Made by a program: the position numbers and the translations under genes. Below, piece by piece: positions 5,131 through 64,000 of a stretch of DNA of 64,000 nucleotides. The stretch spans positions 12,021 to 76,020 of the forward strand of contig DASROF010000112.1 in the NCBI GenBank assembly GCA_035647075.1. Reading direction: 5' to 3'. Numbering within the stretch: the first letter of the stretch is position 1; each line of letters begins with the position of its first letter. Origin of the DNA: Vicinamibacterales bacterium. Lineage in GTDB: Bacteria; Acidobacteriota; Vicinamibacteria; Vicinamibacterales; UBA2999. Under the pieces are notes generated by a model. The model had not been told where the DNA came from, made no database searches, and saw only the letters and a list, made by a program, of their open reading frames with translations.

Positions 5131-5586
5131 TCAAGCCGATTGTGCACCCATAACCAGCCAATCTGGACTGCAGCACAGACGACGATGAGCGCGAGTACGC
5201 TGCCCACCACGTAAGGCGACACCGCTCAACTCGCCAGCAGACAGGTTGAGCATCAGGGAGATGAACCGCAGGTAGTCGGACGCCGGCGTCCACGGAAAGC
5301 GATAGTTCTCCACCGCCGGCTGGAACACGTAGCCTCTCATGAAAAGCGCCCAGCCGCCGGCGCTCACTACGAGACCCGCCAGCGCCAGCCACACGCGACG
5401 CTCGCATCGTGGAGCCGGATGGGGTTCACCCTGGAAAAGCGGGCGATAGAACTCCCACTGATCCCAGAACATCACGTTGGGCTGAAAGCGCGCCACCATG
5501 ACAATCCAATTGACGTACAGAAGCGCGCACAACACCCAGATGACTCGAACAGCCCTGCGAGCGTGGTCAGGCAGGTGGTCTTTCAC
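5131..5586 (-). CDS. Hypothetical membrane protein, possibly truncated or frameshifted at its 3' end
   Basis: 151 aa with a GTG start 7 nt after the upstream OMP stop. Hydrophobic N-terminal two-thirds, but an Arg-rich, out-of-frame-looking tail. An alternative frame (ORF 4821..5222) encodes a clean TM helix, VVGSVLALIVVCAAVQIGWLWV. Confidence 0.4.
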   Translation of the reverse strand: MKDHLPDHARRAVRVIWVLCALLYVNWIVMVARFQPNVMFWDQWEFYRPLFQGEPHPAPRCERRVWLALAGLVVSAGGWALFMRGYVFQPAVENYRFPWTPASDYLRFISLMLNLSAGELSGVALRGGQRTRAHRRLCCSPDWLVMGAQSA

Positions 5587-5593
5587 CTAAAGC

Positions 5594-6220
5594 CTATCGA
5601 ATCGACATCCCGGCACTGACGGCAAAGACGCTGACCCGGGGTGTCACATCCCCGCCCGCCATTTGATGCGCGCGCAGGTCGATGCTGAACGCCACTCGCG
5701 GCTTGATGAACCAGCGCGCCCCGCCGCCGAAGTTCAGTGACCGCCGCAGGCCGGATTCCTCCGTCCCCGGCGACGCGTCCGTCGCCTCAGTGTTCACGCT
5801 GCCGATGCCGAGGCCTGCGCTGAGGTAGCTCCAGCCGTCCCGGGAGCCGAAGTTGAAGGAGATTTGCGGGGCGATGACTCGCATGGTCAACGACAGACGC
5901 TGACCGACAGTGGCGGAACCCTCCTGAGTACTTGCAGGCGCGGTCGTGGTCGCGCGGACGAACATGACGCCGCCACCCAGGCCCACGCGGGCAGGCCCAA
6001 CATCGAACAGGTACACGTGCCCGCCCACGTCGGCGCCGAAGCCACGGCTTGGAACGACGGTTGGTGTCAGCGTCGGATAGAAGCTGGCATCCGTGGGGAC
6101 CGCACTGGTGACGCCGCGAACGTCCAGCACCCACGGCCCCGGCGGTGAGGTCGTCTGTCCCGCAGCCGGAACCGCGATCAGGATCGCCGTCGCTGCCCCC
6201 CAGGCCGCCGCCCGAAGCAC
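5594..6220 (-). CDS. Small outer-membrane beta-barrel protein (OmpA-like/OmpW-like 8-strand class)
   Basis: 208 aa with a signal peptide (AVPAAGQ) and alternating Gly/aromatic beta-strand pattern. The GTG start overlaps the upstream TAG by 1 nt (TAGTG). Confidence 0.6.
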   Translation of the reverse strand: MLRAAAWGAATAILIAVPAAGQTTSPPGPWVLDVRGVTSAVPTDASFYPTLTPTVVPSRGFGADVGGHVYLFDVGPARVGLGGGVMFVRATTTAPASTQEGSATVGQRLSLTMRVIAPQISFNFGSRDGWSYLSAGLGIGSVNTEATDASPGTEESGLRRSLNFGGGARWFIKPRVAFSIDLRAHQMAGGDVTPRVSVFAVSAGMSIR

Positions 6221-6483
6221 TACTTCGCGCTCGTCTTTCGACGTTCGGCCCAGTACTTGCGCATGCGCTCAGATACTTCCTTGCGCTGCGCGGCGCTCAT
6301 CGCCGGACGGCGGCGTTTCCGTGCGCCGCCCGCTTTCGCGCCCTGACCGCTGCCACGCCGTCCGCCGAACAGCTCGGGGAATTCGGCTCGTATCGCCGAC
6401 TCCTCCTCACGTAGCTGCTCGAGCCTGGCGACGGCTCCGAGACGCGCCAGCCGACGCAGTTGTTCCTGGTTCAGATTAGCCAC
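6220..6483 (-). CDS. Small basic coiled-coil protein (possible nucleic-acid binding), hypothetical
   Basis: 87 aa. N-terminal heptad-like LRRLARLGAVARLEQLREEE, a Gly/Arg/Lys linker, and C-terminal MSAAQRKEVSERMRKYWAERRK. Confidence 0.55.
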   Translation of the reverse strand: MANLNQEQLRRLARLGAVARLEQLREEESAIRAEFPELFGGRRGSGQGAKAGGARKRRRPAMSAAQRKEVSERMRKYWAERRKTSAK

Positions 6484-6519
6484 GTATGACTCCTCAGCCG
6501 ACCTGCGGTCAGCCTTTCC

Positions 6520-7392
6520 CTAATAGCCCTTGCTGGTGGGGACCGGCTTCTCGCCCCTCGACTCCTGCACGATCCGCACGCCCGCGCTCGCGCCGATTCG
6601 TGTCGCGCCCGCCGCCACCATCGCCTGCAATCCTTCGAGGTCGCGCACGCCGCCGGCGGCCTTCACGCCCATCTCCGCTCCGACTACCCGGCGCATCAAG
6701 GCTACATCGGCCACGGTCGCGCCCCCCGGCCCGAATCCGGTTGACGTCTTCACGAAGTCCGCGCCAGCGGCCTTCGCCACCGTGCATGCGGCGATCTTCT
6801 CCTCGTCACTGAGCAGCGCGGCCTCGATGATCACCTTGCTGAGGGCACCAACTTCTCGGCAGGGGACGCTCACCGCTTCGATGTCTCGTTCAACGAGACG
6901 GAGGTCTCCGGATTTGAGCGCGCCGACGTTGATGACCATGTCGATCTCGCGCGCGCCGTCGAAGAGCGCCCGCCGGGTCTCATAATGCTTCGCATCCGCC
7001 GTCGTCGCGCCCAGCGGGAACCCGACTACGGAGCAGACCCGCACCGGAGTCTCGCGCAACAACCGCGCACAGTCGGCGACCCAGGTCGGATTGACGCACA
7101 CGCTCGCAAAGCCGTACTCCGCCGCCTCACGGCACAGCGCTTCGATGTCCCTGCGTGTCGCATCCGGCTTCAACAACGTGTGGTCGATCATCGACGCCAC
7201 GCCTGCGGCCGCACCGCCGCTGGCGTGAATGCCCAGCCGGGTCGCACCGGCTTCGATCACTCCCCGCAGGCGGTCCGGGCAGCATTCATACAGGAGCGCA
7301 TGGCAGTCGCAACGCCGTGGAGGCGTCCGCGCCGCAGCCGCCAGTTCCTCGACGATGATGTCAACCAGGCGTTGAAGGTCGGCTCGTTCCAT
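6520..7392 (-). CDS. deoC: Deoxyribose-phosphate aldolase with a ~65-aa N-terminal extension
   Basis: 290 aa. DERA core is [11 protein letters not shown]...ASVCVNP...KVIIE...[10 protein letters not shown]. The start overlaps the rpiB-family stop (TGATG). Confidence 0.85.
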
Positions 7393-8027
7393 CAGGTCCG
7401 TGGTCGGGTTTCGAGTTCACGGATCTTGGCCAGCCGGCGGATGTAGCGCGGCTCTCGCATCGGCGTGGCCAGGAATGTATCGACGATGGGCAGGGTCTCC
7501 TCCGCGGTGACGAGCGTCGATCCGAGGGCGAGCACGTTCGCACCGTTGTGCTGACGCGCGTAGCGCGCCAGCGTCTCATTCAGACACATCGCTGCGCGGG
7601 CTCCGCGAATCTTATTGGCAGCGATCGTCGACCCCAGACCGGATCCGTCGATCACAATCGCGGCGTCGGCCTCCCCCCGCGCCACGGCCAGTGCCGCCGC
7701 TGACGCCGTGTCCGGATAATCAACCGGATCGCTGGTCGTGGTCCCCAGGTCGTGAACGGCAACGCCTCGCCCGCGCAGGTGCGCGATGATGGCACGCTTC
7801 AGCGCCAGCGAGGTGTGATCGCCTGCGATCGCGACTGTTCGGATATCGGCGCGCGGCGCAAGGCTCGACGCGTCCTCGGTCGCCCCTTCGCTCGTGACGG
7901 CGATGCGGCGTGCGTTCAATGTGTCCTGCGCGAGCGGTGTAATGTGGCCTCCCGCGACGAGGACGATCGTGGTTCCCGGTTCCAGCACACGGGCGTCCGC
8001 CTCAGTGATCATCTGAAACCGCTTCAC
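7392..8027 (-). CDS. RpiB/LacA/LacB-family sugar-phosphate isomerase with a ~65-aa N-terminal extra domain
   Basis: 211 aa. The C-terminal ~145 aa align by eye to E. coli RpiB (IAGDH..., [24 protein letters not shown]). Confidence 0.8.
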
Positions 8028-8052
8028 GCCGCGCTATGTTACCCTCGCGCCA

Positions 8053-8583
8053 ATGACCGCTCAAGGCGTGCAGGACGTGCAAGCGCTCATTTCAGCCGCG
8101 GACATTCAAGCGCGCGTGCAGGCGCTCGCTGGTGAGATACGACGTGACCATCCTCACGGCGTCCACCTCGTTTGCGTGCTGAAGGGGGCATTCGTGTTCT
8201 TATCCGATCTCTCGCGCGCACTGGCGAACGGCGTGACGCTCGATTTCATCGCCGTGTCCAGCTACGGCCAGGGATCCACGTCATCGGGACAGGTCCAGCT
8301 CCTGAAAGACCTCGACTCGCCGATCGAAGGACGGGACGTCGTCATCGTCGAAGACATCGTCGACACAGGCCTCACGCTCACCTATCTGCAGGAGATTCTT
8401 CGCGCGCGGTCGCCGCGAACGTTGCGGACCGCCTGCCTCTTGAGCAAGCCGTCGCGGCGGAAGGTCGACGTGGTGGTGGAGTACGTGGGCTTCAGCATCG
8501 AAGATGAATTCGTCGTGGGCTACGGACTCGATTACGCCGAGCGCTACAGAAACCTTCCGTATATCGGCGTCATCGCGGTTTAG
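8053..8583 (+). CDS. hpt: Hypoxanthine phosphoribosyltransferase
   Basis: 176 aa. PRPP-binding motif VVIVEDIVDTGLTLTYL and GYGLDYAERYRNLPYIG. Confidence 0.9.
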   Translation: MTAQGVQDVQALISAADIQARVQALAGEIRRDHPHGVHLVCVLKGAFVFLSDLSRALANGVTLDFIAVSSYGQGSTSSGQVQLLKDLDSPIEGRDVVIVEDIVDTGLTLTYLQEILRARSPRTLRTACLLSKPSRRKVDVVVEYVGFSIEDEFVVGYGLDYAERYRNLPYIGVIAV

Positions 8584-9391
8584 AGGGATCCGGTACGTCC
8601 ACAGCCGACTCCGTGCGAACCTCGAATCGCCGGAACTTCGAGTACTTCGCGGTGCCGATGAAGTCGTCGCTTCCGCGCGGCACCTCGTCGCGCATTTCGA
8701 CCGGCACACGAAGATTCAGGCCAGGGTCGGGCGCAAAGGTGGTCGTGGTGATTTCGGCCCGTCCGCCGAATCCAGACTGCAGTTCGGTCTTATAGATTTC
8801 CCCGGTCGTTTCCGACACCCAGGCCCTCGATTGTTTCGATGTCCGCCCTCGTCCGGGCATTGGCAAGAGGTCGATTTCCCTGATATCAGCACCCAGGTCC
8901 TTCGCCGTATCGCCAAGCGAGATGCGGAAGCCGCCCTGGTATTCAGGCTGCAGGTAGCCGACGACGGTCAACGGATCCATGAGGCGGCCGTTGTCGACGC
9001 TGAGTCGCAAGCCATCACGGTGAATCTCCTGCGCCCGCTTGGCGGCGTTGTTGAATGGCTGCAGGAACAGCTTCGTGATCCGGTCCTGTTTATCTCGAAC
9101 AGCCTTGCCGTCCACCTCCCGCACGTCTCTGAACACCATGACGACCTCCGGCCGGCCCGGATAGCCGACAAGGAGGAAATCCGACTTCAGGTGTCGCTTC
9201 CTGGACCCGATCGTGAAGCGCTGGTCGTACTCCTCTTCGGACACAACGTTGCTGAACTCGCTGATGAAGCGGCGGGCATACGCTGCCACCCGCCGAGCCA
9301 GCTCCCCGACTTCAGCCTCCTGTGTCTGCACTACCGGCGACGCGCACAGTTCCAGAACACTGATCGCAATCAAAACAACTACCAGACGCAT
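8570..9391 (-). CDS. Secreted hypothetical protein
   Basis: 273 aa with an N-terminal signal-like segment. I recognise no motif. Lies 4 nt downstream of the amidohydrolase gene on the same strand. Confidence 0.55.
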   Translation of the reverse strand: MRLVVVLIAISVLELCASPVVQTQEAEVGELARRVAAYARRFISEFSNVVSEEEYDQRFTIGSRKRHLKSDFLLVGYPGRPEVVMVFRDVREVDGKAVRDKQDRITKLFLQPFNNAAKRAQEIHRDGLRLSVDNGRLMDPLTVVGYLQPEYQGGFRISLGDTAKDLGADIREIDLLPMPGRGRTSKQSRAWVSETTGEIYKTELQSGFGGRAEITTTTFAPDPGLNLRVPVEMRDEVPRGSDDFIGTAKYSKFRRFEVRTESAVDVPDPSKPR

Positions 9392-9394
9392 CGG

Positions 9395-10789
9395 CTATCG
9401 CACTGCTCCCCGGACTCTGTCCGCCCACGCACGAGCGTCGCGAAGCACTTGAGCCTCGTCCAATGTCAGTACCTTCTTCTCCCGCATCAGAATCCGGCCG
9501 TTCACGATCGTCGTACGAACATCATCGCCGCGAGACACATACACGAGGTGCGATACAGGATCATACATGGGGGTCTGACGTGCTCCGGAGACGTCGACCA
9601 GGATCAGGTCGGCGCGCTTCCCTGTCTCGAGCGAACCGATCCGCGACTCCATCCCGAGCGCCCGCGCGCCGCGAATCGTCGCCATCTCCAGCGCCGTCTT
9701 CGCGCTGACCGCTCGAGGATCCGCCGACTGCAACTTGTGCAGCAGCGACGCCATTCGCATCGCCTCGAACATGTCGAGATCGTTGTTGCTGGCGGCGCCG
9801 TCGGTCCCGAGACCAATCGCGGCATCGGCGCGCAGATATGCCGGCACCGGCGCGGTTCCGCTTGCCAGCTTCATGTTGCTCTCCGGATTGTGCGAGATGC
9901 CGACGTGTCGCATGGTCAGCAGCGCGATATCAGGCTCGGTGACCCAGACTCCGTGCGCAGCGAGGACGCCGGGCCCGAGAAAGCCGAGGCTCTCGAGGTA
10001 ACCGACCGGAGACAGCTTGAACTGCGTTTCCGCGTTCTTCGCCTCGTCTTGCGTCTCGGCCAGATGAATCAGCGTCGGCACGTTATGACGGCGCGACAAA
10101 TCCCGCGCGGCGCGCAGGCTGGCTGCGTCGAGGGTGTAAATCGCGTGCGGTGCAACGGCAGGCGTGATCAGGGAGTCGTTCTTGAAGGCGGTGATGAACT
10201 TCTCGGCCCGGGCGAGGGCGTCGGCGGGCGTCTTGGCATCCGCGACAGGGAACTGAATGATCGTCTGGCCCAGCACGCCACGGAGGCCCGCGGCCTTCGT
10301 CTCCTTCGCGATCTCCTCCTCGAAGTAGTACATGTCGGCGTAGGTCGTCGTGCCCGACTCGATCATTTCGAGCGCCGCCAGGCGCGTGCCCGCCCGGACG
10401 AACTCCGGTGAGACGGTCTTCGCCTCTGCCGGGAAGATGTACTTCTCCAGCCACTCCGACAACGCGAGATCGTCCGCGAGTCCGCGAAACAACACCATCG
10501 GCGCGTGTGTATGGGTATTAATAAGGCCGGGGAGAACAATCTCGCCGGCGGCGTCCACGCGTTCGCGTGCACGGAAGCGGGCGGTAATATCGGGGGTCGG
10601 TCCCACGGCGACGATGTCGGTGCCGTCGATCGCCACGGCGCCGTTCTGAATGACCTGACGCGCCGGGTTCATGGTCACGACGATCCCGTTCGTCACGATG
10701 ACGGACACTTCACGGGAACCCGACTGCGCGAACAGGACGGCGACAAGCGCCGCCGCAACGAGGGCAAAGATCAGCAGACGAACCTTCAT
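9395..10789 (-). CDS. Amidohydrolase-superfamily protein (MtaD/chlorohydrolase-like) with N-terminal signal/anchor
   Basis: 464 aa. Metal-binding LPGLINTHTHAPM plus downstream HLAET and GTDG motifs. Hydrophobic N-terminus MKVRLLIFALVAAALVAVLFAQ. Confidence 0.8.
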   Translation of the reverse strand: MKVRLLIFALVAAALVAVLFAQSGSREVSVIVTNGIVVTMNPARQVIQNGAVAIDGTDIVAVGPTPDITARFRARERVDAAGEIVLPGLINTHTHAPMVLFRGLADDLALSEWLEKYIFPAEAKTVSPEFVRAGTRLAALEMIESGTTTYADMYYFEEEIAKETKAAGLRGVLGQTIIQFPVADAKTPADALARAEKFITAFKNDSLITPAVAPHAIYTLDAASLRAARDLSRRHNVPTLIHLAETQDEAKNAETQFKLSPVGYLESLGFLGPGVLAAHGVWVTEPDIALLTMRHVGISHNPESNMKLASGTAPVPAYLRADAAIGLGTDGAASNNDLDMFEAMRMASLLHKLQSADPRAVSAKTALEMATIRGARALGMESRIGSLETGKRADLILVDVSGARQTPMYDPVSHLVYVSRGDDVRTTIVNGRILMREKKVLTLDEAQVLRDARAWADRVRGAVR

Positions 10790-54543: not shown

Positions 54544-55917
54544 TTACCCGCCCGGCACCAGATACTTTGCGAACACGGCCGCCAGGCCCAGGAACGAGAA
54601 ATAGCCAAACACATCCGTCATGGTCGTGATGAACACCGATGACCCCAGCGCCGGATCGACGTTCGCCGCTCTCAGTCCCAGCGGAATCAACGTGCCGGCA
54701 GTGGCGGCCACAAACATGTTGATAACCATCGCCATTCCGAGCACGGCACCAAGCATCGGGTTGCCGCGGGTCACCATCACCACCAGCGCCGCGGCCGTGC
54801 CGAGTGCGAGGCCGTTCCCGATGCCGACGGCGGCTTCCTTCAGTAACGCCTTCCGCGAGTTGCTCCACGTCAGCTCACCGAGCGCGATCCCGCGCACGAT
54901 GACGGTCATCGTCTGTGTAGCGGCATTGCCGCCCATGCCGGCGACGATGGGCATGAAGATGGCCAGCACGGGGAACAGATCGATTTGCTTTTCAAACAAC
55001 GCCACAACGCCGGCAGCCAGAAATGCGGTAGCGAGGTTCACGGCCAGCCAGGGCACTCGCTTGCGAAGCGACTCACCCGCCGGCGTAAACGCGCGCTCGT
55101 CACCCGCAACACCGGCCAACCGGTAGATGTCTTCTGTCGCTTCGTCCTTGATGACGTCGATGACGTCATCAACCGTAATGATCCCGACAAGCTTGTTCTC
55201 TTCGTCCGTGACCGGAATGGCCAGCAGGTTGTACGCCGCGACCTGCCGCGCCACCTCCTCCTGGTCCATGTCCACGCGCGCGCTGATCAGATCCGCGGTC
55301 ATGATGCGCTTGAGCGGCGTCTCCGGTGAGACCAGCAGCAGGCGTCGAAGCGAGACGACGCCGACGAGATGCTTCCGGTCATCGACGACGTAGAGATAGA
55401 AGACCATCTCGACATCCCGGTTGTTCTGCAGCTCGGTGATCGCCTCGCCAACCGTCATGTCTTCGCTGAGGGCGAAGACGTGCGGGTTCATGATGCGGCC
55501 CGCGGTCTGCTCGTCGTACTCGAGCAGGTTCTCGACGACGCCGGACTCCTTCGGACGCATCAGGTCGAGCACTGCCGATGACAGCTCTTCAGGCAGGTAA
55601 TCGATCAGGGCTGCCGCGTCGTCGGACGGGATCTCCTGGGCCAGCTTGGCGATATCTTCAGCGGAGCGCGTGGCCAGCAGAGCGGAGCCCGACTCAGGCC
55701 CGAGTTCGGAGATCGTCTCCATCGCCAGCCGGCCGTTCCGTTCGGCCAGCAGGCTGAACGCGGCCTCGCGGTCCTTCTCTGCCAGTTCGCCGAAGATTTG
55801 AGCGAGATCGGCTGGGTGCTGCTTCTGCAGCAGGTTCAACAGGTTAGCGGTCGCACCAATGCGCAGCAGTCGCTTGACTGAGTCGAGGACGAGATCGATT
55901 CTGCGTTGCGCCGCCAT
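54544..55917 (-). CDS. mgtE: Magnesium transporter MgtE
   Basis: 457 aa. N-domain, tandem CBS region, and a C-terminal 5-TM domain with PIVAGMGGNAATQ. Confidence 0.9.
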   Translation of the reverse strand: MAAQRRIDLVLDSVKRLLRIGATANLLNLLQKQHPADLAQIFGELAEKDREAAFSLLAERNGRLAMETISELGPESGSALLATRSAEDIAKLAQEIPSDDAAALIDYLPEELSSAVLDLMRPKESGVVENLLEYDEQTAGRIMNPHVFALSEDMTVGEAITELQNNRDVEMVFYLYVVDDRKHLVGVVSLRRLLLVSPETPLKRIMTADLISARVDMDQEEVARQVAAYNLLAIPVTDEENKLVGIITVDDVIDVIKDEATEDIYRLAGVAGDERAFTPAGESLRKRVPWLAVNLATAFLAAGVVALFEKQIDLFPVLAIFMPIVAGMGGNAATQTMTVIVRGIALGELTWSNSRKALLKEAAVGIGNGLALGTAAALVVMVTRGNPMLGAVLGMAMVINMFVAATAGTLIPLGLRAANVDPALGSSVFITTMTDVFGYFSFLGLAAVFAKYLVPGG

Positions 55918-55995
55918 GATGAATGTCTGACATCCGCCTCCGCCTATAGCTTCGGCGCGACCGCCGTTGGCGGCCTAAACGGCTAAATGTAGCAC

Positions 55996-56024
55996 GGAAG
56001 AAACGGCAGACTCCGGACGTCTAA
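55996..56024 (+). promoter_or_regulatory. ECF-type promoter candidate GGAAG-N17-CGTCTAA just upstream of the ECF sigma gene (autoregulation)
   Basis: Read directly. It resembles the GGAAC-N16-17-CGTC/GTCT class of ECF promoters, with a very short leader. Confidence 0.3.
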
Positions 56025-56036
56025 TGAGCCAGGTGG

Positions 56037-56654
56037 GTGGGAATGTCGGCCGGAACGCCTGAACGGCGTTCCTCGAGCGGCGAGATCAGCGCCGAGGTCG
56101 TCGAGGCGTGCCGCCGGGGTGACCGGGATGCGTTCCGATCGCTCTACGAGGCGTATAAGGATCGCGTCTACTCGATCGCCTACTACTACTTTCATGCAGA
56201 CAGCGACGCCGCGGGCGAGGTGACTCAGCAGGTGTTTCTGAAGTTGATGCGCGAGATGAGCAGATTCCGTGGGGAGTCCGCGTTTTCAACATGGCTGTAT
56301 CGACTGGTCGTCAACGCCTGCGTCGATCGATCACGCAGCCGTCGCAAAGACGCGTTCGGTGAAGACCCGATCGTGCTGGAGCGGATGGCAACGCACGCGT
56401 CGCACGAAGACCTGTTCGCGCAGCGTGAGGTCGCAGAGTCAGTACAACAGGCAATTGCCGCGCTCCCCGCCAAGCTGCGGGTCGCCATCCTGTTGCGCTA
56501 TTTCGAAGACCTCTCCTATGCGGACATGGCGACGGCGCTGAACTGCTCGATCGGAACGGTGGCGTCCAGGCTGAGTCGAGGACATCGCTTGCTCGCCAGG
56601 ACGCTGGCTCCGATGCGAGAGACGATTGCGGCGGAGCCTCCGCCGAAGGCTTAA
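56037..56654 (+). CDS. ECF-type RNA polymerase sigma factor
   Basis: 205 aa. Region 2 (RVYSIAYYYF...FSTWLYRLVVNACVDR) and region 4 (YFEDLSYADMATALNCSIGTVASRLSRG). Start is GTG 56037 or ATG 56043. Confidence 0.85.
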   Translation: MGMSAGTPERRSSSGEISAEVVEACRRGDRDAFRSLYEAYKDRVYSIAYYYFHADSDAAGEVTQQVFLKLMREMSRFRGESAFSTWLYRLVVNACVDRSRSRRKDAFGEDPIVLERMATHASHEDLFAQREVAESVQQAIAALPAKLRVAILLRYFEDLSYADMATALNCSIGTVASRLSRGHRLLARTLAPMRETIAAEPPPKA

Positions 56655-56659
56655 GGCTT

Positions 56660-57727
56660 GTGGACATGTTTACCAGGCACGTCGATAAATCACTCACCCG
56701 CTACTCGGACGGCGAGTTGACCGCCGTCGAGGAGCGGCGTATCGACGATCACCTGGCGTCATGTTCGAAGTGCCGCGCGGCGCTGGATGAGATTCAGTTC
56801 TCGACGCGGCTGATGCGTCAGCTCAGTGGGGTCAACGCCCCTTCGTCCGTTTGGAACGGGATCGATGCCGCACTGACGGAGTGGCGGAATGACGGCTCTG
56901 CCTACGGGGGAACCCTCCCCACCGGGCATGTCTTCGGACGACCGCTGCGGTGGGCTGTAGCCGTCGCACTGATTGCAATCGTTTCGGGCGGTGCGTATTT
57001 GTGGACTCGTGAGACTACGCCCCGACCATGGGAAGTTGCTCACACGATGGGCGGCGCGCGGCGAATGGCCGCTGGAGAGTGGGTTGAAACCGATAGCAGC
57101 TCGAAGGCGCGGATCATCGTCGGCCCCCTGGGGACGGTCGATGTCGAACCGGGGACTCGTGTGCAGCTCGGCCAGGTGCGCGATTCCGAGTATCGGCTGG
57201 CGTTGTCGCACGGCACGATAAGCGCCGAGATCAATGCCCCGCCGCGGCTGTTCATCGTCGACACGCCGGCCAGCGCGGTCGTCGACCTCGGTTGCGCCTA
57301 CACGGTCACGGTCGGCAAGGACGGGGCCGGCGAACTGCACATGACGACCGGCTGGGCCGCCCTCGAATTCAACGGTCGGGAATCGCTTGTCCCTGCCGGC
57401 GCAATCTGCCGCACGAAGCGCGGCACCGGACCTGGCACTCCGTACTTCGAGGACGCGTCCATTGCCTTGCGGCAGGCGGTCGACGACTTCGACAGCGGCA
57501 AGGACGCTCGCCGCGCGCTCGAGGTGATCCTGAATGAAGCCCGCATTCGAGACACGCTGACGCTCTGGCACCTGTTAGCGCGCGTGAACCCGTCGGACCG
57601 GCAACGTATCTACGACCGAATCGCGGCGGTCGCGCCGCTATCGGCTCGCGTGTCGCGTGATCAGATTCTGGCGTTAGACCCCGATGCGTTGCGGAGGTGG
57701 CGAGAAGAGCTCGCCTGGAAATGGTAA
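56660..57727 (+). CDS. Anti-sigma factor (zf-HC2) with TM and FecR-like periplasmic domain
   Basis: 355 aa. HLASCSKCRAAL zinc-finger anti-sigma motif and a TM (WAVAVALIAIVSGGAYLW). Lies 5 nt after the sigma gene. Confidence 0.8.
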   Translation: MDMFTRHVDKSLTRYSDGELTAVEERRIDDHLASCSKCRAALDEIQFSTRLMRQLSGVNAPSSVWNGIDAALTEWRNDGSAYGGTLPTGHVFGRPLRWAVAVALIAIVSGGAYLWTRETTPRPWEVAHTMGGARRMAAGEWVETDSSSKARIIVGPLGTVDVEPGTRVQLGQVRDSEYRLALSHGTISAEINAPPRLFIVDTPASAVVDLGCAYTVTVGKDGAGELHMTTGWAALEFNGRESLVPAGAICRTKRGTGPGTPYFEDASIALRQAVDDFDSGKDARRALEVILNEARIRDTLTLWHLLARVNPSDRQRIYDRIAAVAPLSARVSRDQILALDPDALRRWREELAWKW

Positions 57728-57745
57728 TCACTGGAGGAGCCTGAG

Positions 57746-58246
57746 ATGTCGTTCACCAGAACAGTCGGCACAACGGCCGTGGCCATCACCTGCCTTGTCG
57801 CCGTGGCAGGCGCAGGAACCATGTTCCGTCTGGAAATCGGTCCACCCATCGCGGCGGGCATTTCGAAGAGCAAGGACCTGAAGAAGACGGACGGCAAGAA
57901 GGCCGTTCTCGCGGTACGCGCTCTTGTCTGCGATGACCTGGCACACGTCCAGATTAGCGGCACCGCTGAAGGGCTCGTCAACGGAGCCCGGCAGTCTCTT
58001 CCACTCACATTGACCGAGGTCGACAGGGGTGAAGCGATCTATTTCATCGCGCAGCAGTGGCCGAATGAGGGCGCATGGGTGCTGCACCTCAAGGGGTCCT
58101 GCTCGAACCCGAAAGCCGAAGCCAGCACCCTGGTGGCGGTGAGCAAGGGTGCATTCATCCGCGAGAAGAGCGAAGTGCTTCGCGAACCGGCGACGAAGAA
58201 ACAGGTGGAGGACGCCGTCAAGGCAGTCGCCCGCTCACAGTCGTAG
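57746..58246 (+). CDS. Small secreted hypothetical protein
   Basis: 166 aa with an N-terminal signal/anchor (TAVAITCLVAVAGAG). Lies 18 nt after the anti-sigma gene. Confidence 0.55.
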   Translation: MSFTRTVGTTAVAITCLVAVAGAGTMFRLEIGPPIAAGISKSKDLKKTDGKKAVLAVRALVCDDLAHVQISGTAEGLVNGARQSLPLTLTEVDRGEAIYFIAQQWPNEGAWVLHLKGSCSNPKAEASTLVAVSKGAFIREKSEVLREPATKKQVEDAVKAVARSQS

Positions 58247-58269
58247 GTCGCAGCGCTTCGTCGTCGTCA

Positions 58270-58300
58270 GCACCCAGCGAAAGTTCACGTCGCTGGGTGC
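58270..58300 (+). terminator. Strong hairpin GCACCCAGCG-N11-CGCTGGGTGC, 24 nt after the secreted-protein gene
   Basis: Perfect 10-bp stem read directly, with no U-tract. It separates the sigma/anti-sigma unit from the receiver-HEAT-GT2-HK-YaiO unit. Confidence 0.4.
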
Positions 58301-58399
58301 AGCCGCGTGCATGGCGATGCAGTGCTACACCGGTCCCGTTGCCGCAGTCCTGATCCTTTCTGTAACGACCATCCCTCCAGCAGTCGATAAGCCAGCCAG

Positions 58400-58825
58400 G
58401 TGGCACACACATCAACGGCGGCGGCAACTGCGAACGCGACGGTCTCGACACTCCGCGACGTGCTCGTCATCGAGGACGATCCGGTCGTCTCGCGACTGGT
58501 CGAACACCTGCTGACCCGGCGCGGCTTCGCCGTGCACGTCGCCGCCGACGGCCTTCACGCCCAGTCCCTGCTCAAAACCCTGCCGCGACCGGCCGTCATC
58601 GTGATGGACGTGATGCTGCCCTACGTGGGCGGCTTCGAGCTGATCACTGAGATTCGTCAGACATCCGGCTGGGAACGCGTCCCTGTGATCATGCTGACTT
58701 CGAAGTCACAGGAACGCGACGTTCTGCGCGCATTCGACGCCGGCGTCAACGACTATGTGGTCAAACCATTCCGTCCCGAGGAGTTCGTAGCTCGCGTCCG
58801 ACGCCTGGCGGATGCGCGCGATTAG
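58400..58825 (+). CDS. Stand-alone response-regulator receiver protein (CheY-like, no output domain)
   Basis: 141 aa. VLVIEDD..., VIVMDVMLPYVGG (acceptor Asp), MLTSK, VVKPF. The start could also be GTG at 58451. Confidence 0.8.
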   Translation: MAHTSTAAATANATVSTLRDVLVIEDDPVVSRLVEHLLTRRGFAVHVAADGLHAQSLLKTLPRPAVIVMDVMLPYVGGFELITEIRQTSGWERVPVIMLTSKSQERDVLRAFDAGVNDYVVKPFRPEEFVARVRRLADARD

Positions 58826-58849
58826 GGCCACGCAGGGCGGCACACATCC

Positions 58850-59887
58850 ATGAGTCTTCAGCTCGTCACAGCGGCTGGTATCGTCATCGGCCTTCTGTAC
58901 CTCGTCGTGGTTCTGCAAATCTTCTTTGCCCGGCTCCGCAACCGGATCCGGACGAAGCGGCAGCTCGGCCTCGAACGTACATGGCTGCCAATTCTGGTGG
59001 CCGACACCACCGCCATACCCGAATCACTGCCACCCCTGCGCCAGCGCGATCTCATTCCGTTTCTGACCCTGTGGAACCAGTTGCAGGAGTCGTTCACCGG
59101 CGAGATTACCGGTCATCTCAACGAGGTAGCGCGTCGGATTGGCGCGGACGTTCAGGCGCGACGCATGCTCGATCAACGCAGCCTGCGTCGTCGGCTGCTG
59201 GCGGTCTCGACGCTGGGGCACCTCGGCGACCGCGGCGACCGGGACTCGTGGGCGGCGTTGGTTCGCCTGACGGCCGACAAGGACGGTCTCCTCTCTCTCG
59301 CTGCTGCGCGCGCGCTGACCCGAATCGATGCGACAGCCGCGATGCCGGTCATCCTGCCGCCTCTCAGCGAACGCGACGATTGGTCCAGAAACTACGCGCT
59401 CGCCATGCTGACCGATCTCGGGGTGGACGTCGTGTCGCGCCCGCTGACCGATGCAGCACTGCATTTTCCGATCGAGCGGGCGCCACGGCTGCTGCAGTAC
59501 TTCAACGTCGCCCACCTCGCGGACGCGATGCCGGTCGTTCGCACACTCATTGCCCGGACCAGCAATGTCGAATGCCTGGCGGCGTGTCTGCGATTGTTCG
59601 CCGATGTTGACGACCTCGATACCGTGCGCGACTACCTGCACCACCCGTCGTGGCAGGTGCGAGTGCAGGCGGTGAATGTGCTGGCGCGGCTTGGGCGCGA
59701 GGAGGACTACGCCTTCCTTCAACCGCTGCTGTGCGATTCGGAGTGGTGGGTGCGATACCGGACCGCGAAAGCCCTGTGTTCGTTGCCTGGCGTCGAAATG
59801 TCGCGCATCAGAGACTTGAGTCAGAAACATCGCGACGCGTTCGCCAGGGACATGCTGGTGCACGTACTGGCGGAGGCAGGGGCATGA
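58850..59887 (+). CDS. Membrane-anchored HEAT-repeat protein
   Basis: 345 aa. One N-terminal TM (AAGIVIGLLYLVVVLQIFF), then HEAT/PBS-lyase-like repeats (e.g. HPSWQVRVQAVNVLARLG, DSEWWVRYRTAKALCSL). The stop overlaps the GT2 start (ATGA). Confidence 0.75.
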   Translation: MSLQLVTAAGIVIGLLYLVVVLQIFFARLRNRIRTKRQLGLERTWLPILVADTTAIPESLPPLRQRDLIPFLTLWNQLQESFTGEITGHLNEVARRIGADVQARRMLDQRSLRRRLLAVSTLGHLGDRGDRDSWAALVRLTADKDGLLSLAAARALTRIDATAAMPVILPPLSERDDWSRNYALAMLTDLGVDVVSRPLTDAALHFPIERAPRLLQYFNVAHLADAMPVVRTLIARTSNVECLAACLRLFADVDDLDTVRDYLHHPSWQVRVQAVNVLARLGREEDYAFLQPLLCDSEWWVRYRTAKALCSLPGVEMSRIRDLSQKHRDAFARDMLVHVLAEAGA

Positions 59888-61326
59888 ACGTGGTAACCGT
59901 CGCCAATATCTTCGGGTGGGCGGCGCTCGCCTATCTGGTCGGCATCAATGCCGTATATCTCGTCCTCAACGTCGTCTCCTTCGTGGTCCTTCGGCGCCAT
60001 AAGCAGCGCGGGACGCTTGGTCCGCTCTCCACCCGGTTCTCGAGCCTCGAAGTGCCGGTGTCGCTGCTCATCCCCGCGTACAACGAGGAACACACGGTGG
60101 TGGCGACGGTGCGCTCGCTGCTGCAGCTCAATTATTCGCACTTCGAGATCGTGGTCATCAACGACGGCTCCAGCGATCGGACACTCAACCGCTTGAAGGA
60201 GGCGTTCGACCTGCAGGTCTTCCCCGAGGTCGTCCGGCGGCGGCTGGCGACCGAGCCGATCCGTGCTGTGTATCGCTCACCGATCTATCCGGAACTGAAG
60301 GTGATCGACAAACACAACGGCGGGAAGGCCGACGCCTTGAACGCGGGCATCAATACCGCGCAATACCCCCTCTACTGCGCCTTGGACGCCGACGGGGTCC
60401 TCCGACCCGACAGCTTGCAGAGCATCACGCGCCCGTTCCTGGATGACCCGCTCACGGTTGCAGCTGGAGGCATCATTCGCATCGCCAACGGCTGCGATGT
60501 CGTCAACGGCTGGCTGGTGCGTACGGGACTACCTCGTCGTCCGCTGCCGATGCTCCAGGTCGTCGAGTACTGCCGCGCGTTTCTGTTCGGGCGCCTGGGC
60601 TGGAACCCGGTCAACGGCCTGCTCGTCATCTCCGGCGCCTTCGGCGTGTTCCATAAGGAAACCGTCATCGAGGCCGGGGGGTATCGCCGCAACACCATCG
60701 GCGAGGACATGGAACTGGTCGTACGGCTCCACCGCTTTCTCGGGGGCGCGGGACGGCCGTACCGCATTGTCTTCGCACCGGAACCGGTGTGCTGGACAGA
60801 GGCGCCAGAGAGCATCGGGGCGCTTCGTACTCAGCGCATCCGATGGCAGCGCGGTCTCTGCGAAAGCCTCTGGCTGAACCGGCAACTGCTCTTCAGCCGT
60901 CGCGGAGGCTGGGCGGGATGGGTGGCGTTTCCATTCGCGCTTCTATTCGAGTGCCTCAGCCCCGTGGTCGAAGCACTGGGCTGGGTCTATTTCGGCGCGG
61001 GCTTTCTTGCTGGATTCGTAGGCTGGGGCTTCGCGCTGGCATTCCTCATCGTGAACATCGGGTTCGGCACTCTGCTCTCGGTCAGCTCGCTGCTGCTCGA
61101 CGAGATTTCGTATCACACGTATCCACGGTTTCGTCAGATTCTCGCGCTTCTGGTTGCCGCAACGGTCGAGAACCTCGGGTATCGCCAGATGACGGCCTAC
61201 TGGCGACTGGTCGGCCTCGTCCACTGGATCGCCGGCACCAAGGCCCACTGGGGCGACATGAAACGGACCGCCGAGTGGAGCAGCCCGCTGCCATCCCCGC
61301 AGGCATCGACGACAAACCGAACATGA
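59884..61326 (+). CDS. Integral-membrane family-2 glycosyltransferase, processive synthase type (PgaC/IcaA/NodC-like motifs)
   Basis: Start is MNVVTVANIF at 59884 (internal Met of the 558-aa track ORF), giving 480 aa. Motifs are IPAYNEE, NDGSSD, LDADG, GEDME and QRIRWQRG (QxxRW), with N- and C-terminal TM clusters. Confidence 0.8.
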   Translation: MNVVTVANIFGWAALAYLVGINAVYLVLNVVSFVVLRRHKQRGTLGPLSTRFSSLEVPVSLLIPAYNEEHTVVATVRSLLQLNYSHFEIVVINDGSSDRTLNRLKEAFDLQVFPEVVRRRLATEPIRAVYRSPIYPELKVIDKHNGGKADALNAGINTAQYPLYCALDADGVLRPDSLQSITRPFLDDPLTVAAGGIIRIANGCDVVNGWLVRTGLPRRPLPMLQVVEYCRAFLFGRLGWNPVNGLLVISGAFGVFHKETVIEAGGYRRNTIGEDMELVVRLHRFLGGAGRPYRIVFAPEPVCWTEAPESIGALRTQRIRWQRGLCESLWLNRQLLFSRRGGWAGWVAFPFALLFECLSPVVEALGWVYFGAGFLAGFVGWGFALAFLIVNIGFGTLLSVSSLLLDEISYHTYPRFRQILALLVAATVENLGYRQMTAYWRLVGLVHWIAGTKAHWGDMKRTAEWSSPLPSPQASTTNRT

Positions 61327-63392
61327 CCACGAAGACGCGGACGCACGCGCGACGCGCCTTCCGACGTCACGACGCATCGCGCACCACGCCCCGGCGCAGC
61401 GGCACGCTCGCAGCGATTCGCGCGGAACGTGACCAGGCCCTGGAGCGCGCTCGTCGCACGTCGGAGTTCATCTCCCACGCGAGCCACGAGATCCGGACGC
61501 CGCTGCACGGCATCATGGGTTTCTCGACACTGCTGCTCGGCGCGGAGCTGTCGGACGAACAGCGGCGGCTGGCCAATTCGCTTCATGCGAGCATCGAATC
61601 GCTGCTCGCGGTCGTCAACGACGTACTCGATGTGTCGACGCTCGAGGCCGGCGCGATGCGACTGGAATCCGCCGGATTCAACCTGGTGGCGCTGGTCAGG
61701 GGCGTCGCGGACATGTTCAGCGAAACAGCCATGGCGAAGGGACTGGTCCTCCGCGTCGACACAGACGGCGTGAAACATACGACCGTGACGGGCGACCCTG
61801 GACGCATCCGTCAGATCCTGGCGAACTTCGTCTCCAACGCGGTGAAGTTCACCGATGAGGGCTCGGTGGTCATCCGTGCCGCGACTCGGGCGACAAGCAG
61901 CGGCACCGTCGACGTTCGCCTGGCGGTGAGTGACACAGGCCCCGGCGTTCCGCGTCACGCCCAGGCACGCCTCTTCCAGCCGTTCTCCCGGATCGACCGT
62001 CCGGCCGTCGCCTCCAAGCCAGGGACGGGCCTGGGTCTTTCAATCTCAAAGCAGCTCGTCGAACTGATGGGCGGAACGGTGAGCGTCTCCAGCCGTTCCC
62101 CTCGAGGCTCGATCTTCGCCTTCACGGTCAGTCTCAAAGAGGACACCCGCCCCATCGGACATCGTGCGCTCGAGCTGATCGAGACGGCGAAACTTCGTGT
62201 CTACGTCGCAGACGACGATTCCCGATCGCTGAGCGAGTTGCTGCTGTCGCTCGCGGTGACGGGTGTGGAAGTTGCTGCGAGCGGGTCGGCAGCAGGGTTA
62301 CCGGAAGCGCTGCGCACAGCACGGTCTGCCGGTCACTCGATCGACGTCGCGATCGTGGGCCACGTTCGTCTGCAGGGCGGCGACCTGGCCATCGCGAAAG
62401 CAATCAGGGCCGATCCCCGTTTGGCAGGCGTACCGCTGGTGCTGGCGCCGGTGTCCGGCGTTCGAGGTTACGCCCGCGACGTTCGCGAGGCGGGATATAG
62501 CGCGTACATTCCGAGACCGTTCCAGGGTGCCGAACTGCTCCAGTGCCTGCGGGCAGTGATGGTGCACGGTCACGACAGCGCCACGCTGGACGATCCGCTG
62601 ATCACGCGCCACAACGTTACCGACCAGCCGAACCTCCCGACAGGGCGCGTCCTTCTGGCTGACGATGATTCGGTGAGCCGCCATGTCACGCGCTTGCAGG
62701 TTGCGCGCCTCGGGTATCTCGTTGACGAAGTGGCCGGCGGAGCGGACGCGGTGGCGGCCGCGGCAACCGGCGCGTATCAGCTGATCCTGCTGGACTGCCA
62801 GATGCCGGGCATGGACGGCCTCGCAGCAGCTGCAGCGATCAGACGAGCGGAGCGAAACGGACGCCGTGCCTTCATCGCCGCGCTGACGGCAGACGTGAGC
62901 CGGGAACAGCGCGACCGCTGCCGCCAGGCTGGCATGGACGACTTCCTGGAGAAGCCGCTGCGGCTGCAACGGCTAGCCGAACTGCTCAATACCCACTTGC
63001 GGCGCGGCCCCGACACCACAGTGACCGACGCGCGCACCGCTGCACGCGACGCCGCTGTCGCGACCGGCCTGAATCTCCTCGCGGCCGACATCGGCCCTGA
63101 GAAGACGCTTGAACTCGTCCGCGAATACGTTGCCGGCGTGGATCTGGCGATCGAACGTCTATCGCACCTCGACCTCGTGGACGCCTCCGTCTTGCGCAGC
63201 GTCGCGCATCGGCTCCTCGGCGGCGCCCGCATCCTTGGACTCGTCCGCTTTGAGCGCATCTGGGCCGCGCTCTCCGACGGTCCGGAAGGCGCTGAGCCCA
63301 GCATGCCGCCGATGGCCATTCACGAATTGCGCGACGCCTCTGCGGAACTTGCCACCTGGATCGATTCGCACCAAAGGAAGCAGCATGCCTAA
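61323..63392 (+). CDS. Cytoplasmic hybrid histidine kinase: HisKA-HATPase_c-degenerate REC-REC-Hpt, no sensor or TM domain
   Basis: Start is [11 protein letters not shown] at 61323 (ATGA overlap with GT2). H-box [12 protein letters not shown]-box NAVKFT, G-boxes [14 protein letters not shown], second [14 protein letters not shown]...LEKPL, Hpt [11 protein letters not shown]. Confidence 0.85.
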
Positions 63393-64000
63393 ACGCCTCA
63401 TCATCGCCGCCGCGCTGATCCTCATGGCTGGAGCAGCGTCGGCCCAGGACAACGTCATTTCAACCGCGCGCGCCGCCTACGCCGCCGGACAACGACCGCA
63501 GGCATTGGCTATGCTGGCGAGCCATGTCGCTGCCACACCGCGCGACGTGGACGCCCGGCTGGTGTACGGCCTGATGCTCTCGTGGGACCGACGTTATGAC
63601 GAAGCCCGCTCGGAACTGCAGCAGGTCCTGATCCAGACGCCCGATTACAGAGACGCGCGGGTCGCGCTGATGAACGTCGAATGGTGGTCCGGCCATACAT
63701 CGTCAGCCAGCGACCTGGCCACGCAGATCCTGACGCGCGATCCGGGCGACCCGCAGGCCCGTCTGATGCGCCAGCGGCTCGATGCGCAGACACGGCCGTG
63801 GCAGGTCAAGACCGGTTACTCACTCGACTCCTTCAATGACGGCGGCGACCCGTGGCATGAGTTCGAGATCTCCGTCGGGCGCGAGACGTCACGAGGCAGC
63901 GTCTTTGTAAGAGGTACGAACGCGGCGCGCTTCGGTTACCGCGATCAGCTCGTGGAGGTCGAGGCGTACCCGAGCTTGCGGGCCGGCACGTACGCCTTCA
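63385..64000 (+). CDS. TPR + YaiO-family outer-membrane beta-barrel protein (N-terminal part; 3' end outside window)
   Basis: Own translation gives [21 protein letters not shown] (signal), TPR-like helices, then RPWQVKTGYSLDSFNDGGDPWHEFEISVGRETSRGSVFVRGTNAARFGYRDQLVEVEAYP, which resembles the YaiO barrel start. ATG 63385 overlaps the HK stop by 8 nt. Absent from the ORF track because no stop lies in the window. Confidence 0.7.
   Translation, partial: MPKRLIIAAALILMAGAASAQDNVISTARAAYAAGQRPQALAMLASHVAATPRDVDARLVYGLMLSWDRRYDEARSELQQVLIQTPDYRDARVALMNVEWWSGHTSSASDLATQILTRDPGDPQARLMRQRLDAQTRPWQVKTGYSLDSFNDGGDPWHEFEISVGRETSRGSVFVRGTNAARFGYRDQLVEVEAYPSLRAGTYAF

Follow-up and report, generated by a model that had tools for sequence, protein, structure and literature searches.

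A candidate processive glycan synthase with a HEAT-repeat partner in a Vicinamibacterales operon

The well-studied synthase-dependent exopolysaccharide systems, those for cellulose, poly-beta-1,6-N-acetylglucosamine (PNAG), alginate, Pel and Nfr, are central to biofilms and are all switched by cyclic di-GMP (c-di-GMP). A family 2 glycosyltransferase (GT2) gene at positions 59884-61326 of a 64,000-nucleotide stretch of DNA from a Vicinamibacterales bacterium (assembly GCA_035647075.1, contig DASROF010000112.1, positions 12,021 to 76,020 of the forward strand; hereafter the window) belongs to a family that shares their catalytic architecture but pairs with a HEAT-repeat protein and usually with a phospho-receiver, in at least several hundred species. 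The locus raises the question of what kind of enzyme this GT2 is and what machine it serves. We read it, with a probability of roughly three in four, as the catalytic subunit of a membrane-embedded processive glycan synthase and translocase of the class that comprises BcsA, hyaluronan synthase (HAS), chitin synthase and PgaC. An earlier note on this DNA had proposed a processive synthase of a beta-linked homopolymer, and the motifs, the fold and the nearest homologues all support that proposal, with processivity, beta linkage and homopolymer being taken over from the family. The window is part of a 4.7-Mb draft genome, in which we read the operon on beyond the window edge.

Motifs, topology and fold of the GT2 protein

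The GT2 shows the motif order of the processive GT2 class, D, DxD, (T/G)ED and QxxRW. All five motifs named in the earlier note (IPAYNEE, NDGSSD, LDADG, GEDME and QRIRWQRG) were recovered, at residues 63, 93, 167, 273 and 317 (Table 1). In an alignment of 37 homologues (55-84% identity), residues D94, D168, D170, E274, D275, Q317, R318, R320 and W321 are invariant, as are numerous positions that are specific to the family. By analogy with BcsA and HAS, D94 of NDGSSD would have a role in UDP binding, and where the GT2 has GEDME, NodC of Sinorhizobium meliloti reads GEDR. The last helix bears the sequence ENxGYRQ, of which E429, G432, Y433, R434 and Q435 are invariant and N430 is nearly so. The WGDMKR loop past this helix corresponds in the alignment to the gating-loop region (FxVTxK) of BcsA and may itself act as a gating loop. 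The donor sugar was also considered from this loop, which reads WGDMKR here, DWLSR in NodC and WGTR in HAS; we rejected this approach because the spacing differs and no established rule exists.

Of the one or two N-terminal and roughly four C-terminal transmembrane segments that had been claimed for the protein, both hydropathy and AlphaFold2 gave one at the N-terminus; at the C-terminus, hydropathy gave a hydrophobic region in which AlphaFold2 places four helices, and the segments quoted at the time fall inside these helices. Because the sequence RRHKQR comes after the N-terminal transmembrane helix, the GT domain is predicted to be cytoplasmic. The AlphaFold2 model, built on the 37-homologue alignment (mean predicted local distance difference test (pLDDT) 82.9, predicted TM-score (pTM) 0.84), consists of a helix at residues 3-45, a GT-A domain, an interface helix at 311-331 that carries QRIRW, and four more helices.

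The top Foldseek match of this model in the PDB was the Chlorella virus HAS (7sp7; E 1.1e-15, TM-score 0.64, 476 aligned columns), and the 13 best matches were all Chlorella virus and Xenopus hyaluronan synthases, aligned over approximately 470-540 columns at a sequence identity of 17-19%. A Pyrobaculum mannosyltransferase came after them, followed by BcsA and then by fungal and oomycete chitin synthases, Chs1 among them. HAS, BcsA and chitin synthase are processive enzymes with an intrinsic channel, and the full-length alignment to HAS and BcsA predicts that the transmembrane bundle and the interface helices of the GT2 form such a channel over the active site. The lack of a transmembrane channel had been set beforehand as an outcome that would speak against a processive synthase; instead, the model matches channel-bearing HAS, BcsA and chitin synthases over its whole length. 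Sequence-only searches of the PDB were uninformative on class because their best matches (chondroitin synthase and others) covered only the generic N-terminal GT-A segment.

The gene itself is tightly embedded. Its ATG and the stop codon of the HEAT gene before it share the sequence ATGA, and its TGA stop codon overlaps the ATG of the downstream kinase gene. Because the close homologues, at 476-482 amino acids (aa), align from residue 1 of the GT2, the ATG at 59884 is supported as the start codon rather than an alternative in-frame GTG upstream at 59650. The homologue search with the GT2 gave E values of 1e-10 or lower for all but two of 8000 scored candidates, and relatives are encoded in at least 594 stretches of a one-genome-per-species collection. 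By these sequence criteria, the frame is a real gene and not a chance open reading frame (ORF). Two genomes of the same family as the source have GT2 orthologues with one in-frame TGA each (G168:C11:119152-120528 and G122:C17:66235-67638), which pseudogene formation, an error in sequencing or recoding of the codon could explain.

Family placement of the GT2

Pfam matched the GT2 with generic GT2 families only, including a weak match to Glyco_transf_21 (25.5 bits). The best NCBIfam model was PgaC_IcaA (TIGR03937) with 130.2 bits, and because this score lies far below the curated cut-off of 422.3, the GT2 is no PgaC equivalog. It scored 94 bits with the model for XrtG-associated glycosyltransferases and was also below the cut-offs for CelA (TIGR03030; 48.6 vs 699.1) and NodC (TIGR04242; 28.3 vs 550). 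In BLASTP comparisons with four GT2 proteins of Escherichia coli K-12, namely PgaC, YaiP, BcsA and NfrB, the best match was PgaC (24% identity over residues 59-468, E 2e-27), followed by YaiP (E 5e-9) and BcsA (E 2.5e-7), and NfrB gave no significant match. No lipid- or teichoic-acid glycosyltransferase model in NCBIfam outscored PgaC_IcaA. The earlier note had considered that the nearest characterised homologues might prove to be lipid- or teichoic-acid-modifying GT2 enzymes; with both methods, they are of the PgaC type.

We then placed the GT2 in a maximum-likelihood tree of 45 sequences, which comprised 31 family members, the query, two plasmid-encoded proteins from Haloarcula and Emticicia, and references: four PgaC-type proteins, three larger PgaC-like fusions, YaiP, BcsA and NfrB of E. 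coli, and S. meliloti NodC from pSymA. In this phylogeny, for which PgaC, BcsA, NodC and YaiP had been named in advance as references, the GT2 family, with 34 rows including those from Haloarcula and Emticicia, forms one separate clade (SH-like approximate likelihood-ratio test (SH-aLRT) 99) on a stem of 1.41 substitutions per site. The PgaC-type proteins of E. coli, Acinetobacter baumannii, Bacillus cereus and Lactococcus lactis form a clade of their own (support 100). YaiP, BcsA and NodC fall outside both clades on very long branches, and NfrB, also on a very long branch, has no resolved position; because of these branch lengths, the exact placement of the four is unreliable. The family further differs from PgaC by conserved insertions at approximately residues 108-133 and 201-220 and by a longer last helix with ENxGYRQ. 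At the level of sequence, the GT2 is thus a member of a distinct family and not a PgaC orthologue.

A profile search of the source genome found no protein that reaches the PgaC_IcaA cut-off. The genome encodes a second PgaC-like GT2 (G000:C17:49697-50749, minus strand; a 574-aa frame with 106 bits for TIGR03937) that is 24-27% identical to the GT2 described here.

Conserved partners and the operon

To describe the gene neighbourhood, we used the 80 best of the at least 594 stretches together with two plasmid loci, giving 82 loci, and counted partners by profile searches of all stop-to-stop ORFs because greedy ORF calling failed in high-GC loci, where it returned antisense ORFs. The hosts of the 80 loci are Acidobacteriota, Nitrospira, Massilia, Polaromonas, Stenotrophomonas, Lysobacter, Luteimonas, Stutzerimonas, Halomonas, Gemmatimonadota, Myxococcota, Bacteroidota, Balneolota, Nitrospinota, Bacillota and Bdellovibrio, and the closest locus among them belongs to a Vicinamibacterales metagenome-assembled genome (62%).

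A HEAT partner was found in 78 of the 82 loci, which are all 78 with DNA upstream of the GT2; in the other four, the GT2 lies at the very start of its contig. The HEAT gene ends between -19 and +62 nucleotides (nt) from the GT2 start in most loci, so that most of the pairs abut or overlap, and 71 of 73 full-length HEAT homologues have an N-terminal transmembrane segment. Of the 82 loci, 65 have a stand-alone receiver near the GT2 and 59 have a YaiO-type barrel; 14, with Bdellovibrio, Stenotrophomonas-type and Emticicia loci among them, encode an LtaS/sulfatase-like membrane enzyme. All-against-all clustering of the ORFs detected no other gene in more than approximately one-quarter of the loci. 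The membrane-anchored HEAT protein is therefore the constant partner of the GT2, and the receiver and the barrel are frequent ones. Recurrent genes for a CE4 deacetylase, PgaD/IcaD, a glycoside hydrolase or dispersin-like protein, PilZ or nucleotide-sugar synthesis were not found in the 82 loci, although a very small PgaD-like ORF could escape the 120-aa ORF filter.

The composition of individual loci varies around this core. According to Pfam, Stutzerimonas stutzeri encodes an Hpt-REC-GGDEF protein, a CHASE3-PAS hybrid kinase, a receiver (REC), a TPR-YaiO protein, a HEAT protein and the GT2, and Bdellovibrio encodes a TPR protein, a sulfatase-like protein, YaiO, a receiver, a HEAT protein and the GT2. 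A tblastn search of plasmids found the module on the Haloarcula halophila plasmid NZ_CP119560, which is annotated with a response regulator, a HEAT repeat protein, a GT2 and a GAF histidine kinase (positions 5442-9570 of the locus) in the same gene order as in the window; this GT2 is 44% identical to ours. Because the archaeal GT2 is nested among bacterial ones in the tree, transfer between domains is suggested. The Emticicia oligotrophica plasmid pEMTOL05 is annotated with a response regulator, a hypothetical protein, the GT2, a second hypothetical protein, a YaiO family barrel and a lipoteichoic acid (LTA) synthase family protein. The kinases near the GT2 vary in their sensor parts, with CHASE3-PAS in S. 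stutzeri and GAF plus PAS in Haloarcula. In five Nitrospira loci (L009, L012, L029, L035 and L042), the receiver and the HEAT gene lie approximately 7 kb upstream of the GT2, and the intervening stretch carries a YaiO gene on the opposite strand.

The searches gave no YaiO barrel for the loci from Haloarcula, Clostridia and Thermovenabulum, whose hosts lack an outer membrane, and none for some diderm loci either (several from Massilia and Myxococcota), so that its distribution partly fits a role in export across the outer membrane. Where present, the YaiO partner is either a barrel alone (approximately 245-300 aa) or a TPR domain with a barrel (approximately 355-470 aa). Its gene follows the GT2 in Stenotrophomonas-type loci; in beta- and gammaproteobacteria, the usual place is between the receiver and HEAT genes.

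Within the source phylum, 36 of 201 sampled genomes have a GT2 orthologue (E <= 1e-80; at least 480 bits except for one fragment), and for this reason we regard the module as accessory and patchy. A literature search found no description of a HEAT- or YaiO-partnered GT2 system. REC-HEAT-GT2, with or without YaiO, is a distinct and widespread module that is apparently uncharacterised.

In the window, the operon corresponds to this pattern (Table 1). The receiver residues D26/D27, D70, T100 and K122, read from the translation, are all canonical. In the HEAT protein, RLRNRIRTKR comes after the single N-terminal transmembrane helix, which by the positive-inside rule predicts a cytoplasmic HEAT domain. 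In the hybrid kinase, hydropathy detected no transmembrane or hydrophobic segment, and Pfam recognised no sensor domain ahead of the H-box. From the HEAT gene through those for the GT2, the kinase, TPR-YaiO and TPR to the sulfatase-like gene, each overlaps the next by 1-8 nt, and a gap of 24 nt separates the receiver and HEAT genes. A promoter and terminator scan of 55900-64000 gave nothing above chance and no terminator-like site inside the operon. On the opposite strand, era comes after the sulfatase-like gene. The 166-aa protein encoded upstream of the operon has an N-terminal hydrophobic segment, no family match and no counterpart in the 80 related loci.

Table 1. Features of the GT2 protein and of the operon, in window coordinates
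Feature	Position	Strand	Evidence or remark
GT2 synthase, 480 aa, intact	59884-61326	+	ORF without internal stop; profile, fold and tree evidence
N-terminal transmembrane helix of GT2, approximately residues 9-37	59908-59994	+	hydropathy; AlphaFold2 helix 3-45
IPAYNEE, residue 63, start of GT-A fold (first beta strand)	60070-60090	+	P64, A65, E68 invariant
NDGSSD, residue 93, first conserved Asp (D94)	60160-60177	+	N93, D94, G95, S96, D98 invariant
LDADG, residue 167, DxD metal/diphosphate-binding motif (D168, D170)	60382-60396	+	both Asp invariant
GEDME, residue 273, counterpart of TED/GED catalytic-base motif (D275)	60700-60714	+	aligned with TED of PgaC and BcsA
QRIRWQRG, residue 317, QxxRW acceptor-binding motif on interface helix 311-331	60832-60855	+	invariance, AlphaFold2
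C-terminal four-helix bundle, residues 339-357, 359-375, 381-410, 416-450	60898-61233	+	AlphaFold2, invariant columns, Foldseek full-length alignment
WGDMKR, conserved cytoplasmic loop past last helix	61249-61266	+	alignment; W456, G457, M459 invariant, R461 nearly
Stand-alone response-regulator receiver, 141 aa, no output domain	58400-58825	+	Pfam Response_reg 96.5 bits
Membrane-anchored HEAT-repeat protein, 345 aa	58850-59887	+	Pfam HEAT_2 68 bits; hydropathy segment residues 1-30
Soluble hybrid histidine kinase, 689 aa, HisKA-HATPase_c-receiver-Hpt	61323-63392	+	Pfam
TPR + YaiO-type outer-membrane beta-barrel protein, 369 aa	63385 to equivalent of 64494, beyond window end 64000	+	Pfam YaiO 122 bits
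TPR protein, 225 aa	beyond window, after TPR-YaiO gene	+	
Polytopic membrane protein, 808 aa, C-terminal sulfatase/alkaline-phosphatase-superfamily domain, last operon gene	beyond window, equivalent of 65165-67591	+	
ECF sigma factor, zf-HC2/FecR anti-sigma factor, 166-aa protein	56037-58246	+	directly upstream, outside conserved set

Because the exporter bears on the nature of the product, we also modelled the TPR-YaiO protein with AlphaFold2 (32 sequences, pLDDT 92.6). The model has a signal peptide helix, seven TPR helices and a 14-strand barrel. Its best fold match in the PDB was the E. coli cellulose exporter BcsC (Foldseek, E 8e-13), followed by general porins and the 14-strand OmpG (TM-score 0.67 on the target). 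A barrel and a periplasmic TPR domain encoded with the synthase are a trait of synthase-dependent exopolysaccharide systems, and this operon has both. A c-di-GMP receptor on or beside the synthase is another such trait. Pfam found no PilZ, MshEN, GGDEF or other c-di-GMP domain in the GT2 or in any operon gene, and the operon has a receiver and a hybrid kinase instead. Likewise, no operon gene carries PgaB/IcaB (CE4) or PgaD/IcaD domains or has a BLASTP match to PgaD. The sulfatase-like protein has approximately 8-10 transmembrane segments and weak matches to LtaS, YejM and phosphoethanolamine (pEtN) transferases. BcsG and OpgB are membrane enzymes of the alkaline-phosphatase superfamily in E. 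coli that decorate glycans with a phospholipid-derived head group, and by analogy with them, the sulfatase-like protein may decorate the polymer.

Proposed mechanism, rival readings and known systems

In the mechanism that we propose, the cytoplasmic GT-A domain (D94, D168-x-D170, D275 and Q317-R-x-R-W321) would add sugars from a nucleotide sugar to a chain that would be threaded through a channel built from the interface helices together with the transmembrane helices, four C-terminal and one N-terminal. The hybrid kinase would phosphorylate the stand-alone receiver, the cytoplasmic HEAT domain would be a co-subunit or adaptor of the GT2, and the receiver would contact the HEAT/GT2 complex and switch synthesis on or off, a task that falls to c-di-GMP receptors in the Bcs, Pga, Alg and Nfr systems. 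The polymer would pass the periplasm along the TPR scaffolds, where the alkaline-phosphatase-superfamily enzyme would possibly decorate it as BcsG and OpgB do, and would exit by the 14-strand barrel. The system is probably a synthase-dependent exopolysaccharide machine that is gated by a phosphorelay. Because GT2 is an inverting family that uses UDP-alpha-sugars, a beta linkage is predicted, and since no precursor gene is co-conserved, the donor may be a housekeeping sugar nucleotide such as UDP-glucose (UDP-Glc) or UDP-N-acetylglucosamine (UDP-GlcNAc).

Several points weigh against this reading. The function is deduced wholly from fold, motifs and gene context, and the channel from the full-length alignment to HAS and BcsA. 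The receiver is missing in 17 of the 82 loci, including those of the Stenotrophomonas/Lysobacter type (HEAT-GT2-YaiO-sulfatase), and phospho-control is therefore common but not obligatory. Because the S. stutzeri locus (L058) encodes its Hpt-REC-GGDEF protein near the GT2, c-di-GMP could still be an input.

Three other readings of the GT2 have to be weighed. It could be a functional PNAG synthase, making poly-beta-1,6-GlcNAc as PgaC and IcaA do but with other accessory proteins. PgaC_IcaA is its best curated family, E. coli PgaC is the best reference over nearly the whole length, and in the tree the GT2 family falls into one broad group with the clades of PgaC and of CE4-GT2 proteins, from which YaiP, BcsA and NodC are excluded, NfrB being without resolved position. 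We nevertheless consider this reading unlikely: the 130 bits fall far short of the 422 required, the identity is just 24%, the two insertions are absent from PgaC, and the family forms a separate clade on a long stem. In addition, the 82 loci show no recurrent gene for a CE4 deacetylase, PgaD/IcaD or a dispersin-like hydrolase, and no protein of the source genome scores above the PgaC cut-off. The earlier note had held the polymer to be unpredictable and had called its own hint at a GlcNAc-type product a guess. The sub-threshold score, the separate clade and the lack of PNAG accessory genes bear out the former, and with 130 against 422 bits and a separate clade, the hint stays a guess.

The two remaining alternatives are less probable still. 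A non-processive or weakly processive glycosyltransferase that acts on lipid, for example a glycolipid synthase feeding the LtaS-like enzyme, would explain why an LtaS/sulfatase-family membrane enzyme closes the operon, since LtaS enzymes build on glycolipid anchors; some membrane GT2 enzymes of similar size and topology are glycolipid synthases, and the weak Glyco_transf_21 match points the same way. However, the LtaS-like gene accompanies the GT2 in just 14 of 82 loci, no lipid- or teichoic-acid family outscores PgaC, and QxxRW, the conserved loop past the last helix and the full-length fold match all point to processive synthases. Co-conservation of the BcsC-like barrel in loci of bacteria, mostly diderm ones, together with the failure to find it in those of Bacillota and archaea, is what an exported polymer predicts. 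We therefore regard a lipid-directed enzyme as improbable. A literature search found no paper linking monoglucosyldiacylglycerol synthase with QXXRW. Slightly more remote still is a periplasmic or short oligosaccharide that is kept in the envelope, similar to osmoregulated periplasmic glucans (OPG) or Nod factors. The pairing of a GT2 with a sulfatase-like protein does resemble that in E. coli, where the GT2 OpgH works with OpgB, a membrane phosphoglycerol transferase of the alkaline-phosphatase superfamily, and the catalytic motif is GED, as in NodC. But the NodC model scores 28 bits against a cut-off of 550, NodC is distant in the tree, the TPR-barrel partner best matches the cellulose exporter BcsC by fold, and some carriers of the module, namely Bacillota and an archaeon, lack an outer membrane that would enclose a periplasm. 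QxxRW, the fold match of the GT2 and the co-conserved barrel speak against this reading too.

Beyond the processive-synthase reading itself, we put forward a broader and distinctly more tentative proposal, which is more likely wrong than right. REC-HEAT-GT2 could represent a distinct, undescribed class of synthase machine in bacteria and archaea, in which a phosphorylated stand-alone receiver directly gates the synthase via the HEAT protein in place of c-di-GMP, the polymer is other than PNAG, cellulose, chitin or hyaluronan, and in some lineages an LtaS-like transferase decorates it. If true, this would imply one or more new matrix glycans and a glycan synthase that a two-component phosphorelay controls at the post-translational level. 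Cultured carriers are available in Massilia, Stenotrophomonas, Stutzerimonas, Halomonas, Bdellovibrio, Emticicia and Haloarcula (on a plasmid).

Among known systems, Xanthomonas xagABCD is a GT2-centred cluster that is needed for biofilm (PMC3609779). It resembles the module in being built around a GT2, and relatives of our GT2 occur in Stenotrophomonas, Lysobacter and Luteimonas; xagABCD may possibly be a relative of the GT2 family. The 'XagB-like' Sfz2 of iron oxidisers has an extra N-terminal domain similar to type II secretion ATPase T2SS-E and a BcsB-like neighbour (PMC8250860, PMC4643136), and by this description its architecture differs from that of the GT2 reported here.

The E. coli pairs YaiP-YaiO and NfrB-NfrA likewise combine a GT2 gene with a gene for an outer-membrane protein, and the barrel family represented in this operon is named after YaiO. 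Unlike our GT2, however, YaiP and NfrB lie outside the clade and have no HEAT or receiver partner, the sequence match is weak (YaiP) or not significant (NfrB), and NfrB is annotated as c-di-GMP-activated. Class I HAS (7sp7; Xenopus HAS1, 8smp) provides the best whole-chain structural match and is similarly a single subunit of approximately 500 residues, but it makes an alternating polymer of glucuronic acid and GlcNAc (GlcA-GlcNAc) and works without partners of the HEAT, receiver or porin kind.

The Bcs system corresponds to the operon at several points: BcsA is a strong fold match whose gating-loop region aligns with WGDMKR, BcsC is the best match of the TPR-barrel protein, and BcsG, which decorates the polymer, would have its functional counterpart in the sulfatase-like protein that closes the operon. 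It differs in that our GT2 has no PilZ domain, no BcsB is encoded, the CelA score is 48.6 bits against 699, and the BcsC barrel has 16 strands rather than the 14 of the TPR-YaiO model. PgaC/IcaA is the best characterised sequence match and shares with the GT2 the fold, the D, DxD, (T/G)ED and QxxRW motifs and the transmembrane helices that flank the GT domain. Like the operon described here, PgaABCD pairs its synthase with an outer-membrane protein of TPR and beta-barrel type. However, the present module has neither PgaB nor PgaD, its partner is a membrane-anchored HEAT protein, and its barrel is of the 14-strand YaiO type and not PgaA. In place of the c-di-GMP-binding PgaC-PgaD interface of the Pga system, its signalling partner is a phospho-receiver.

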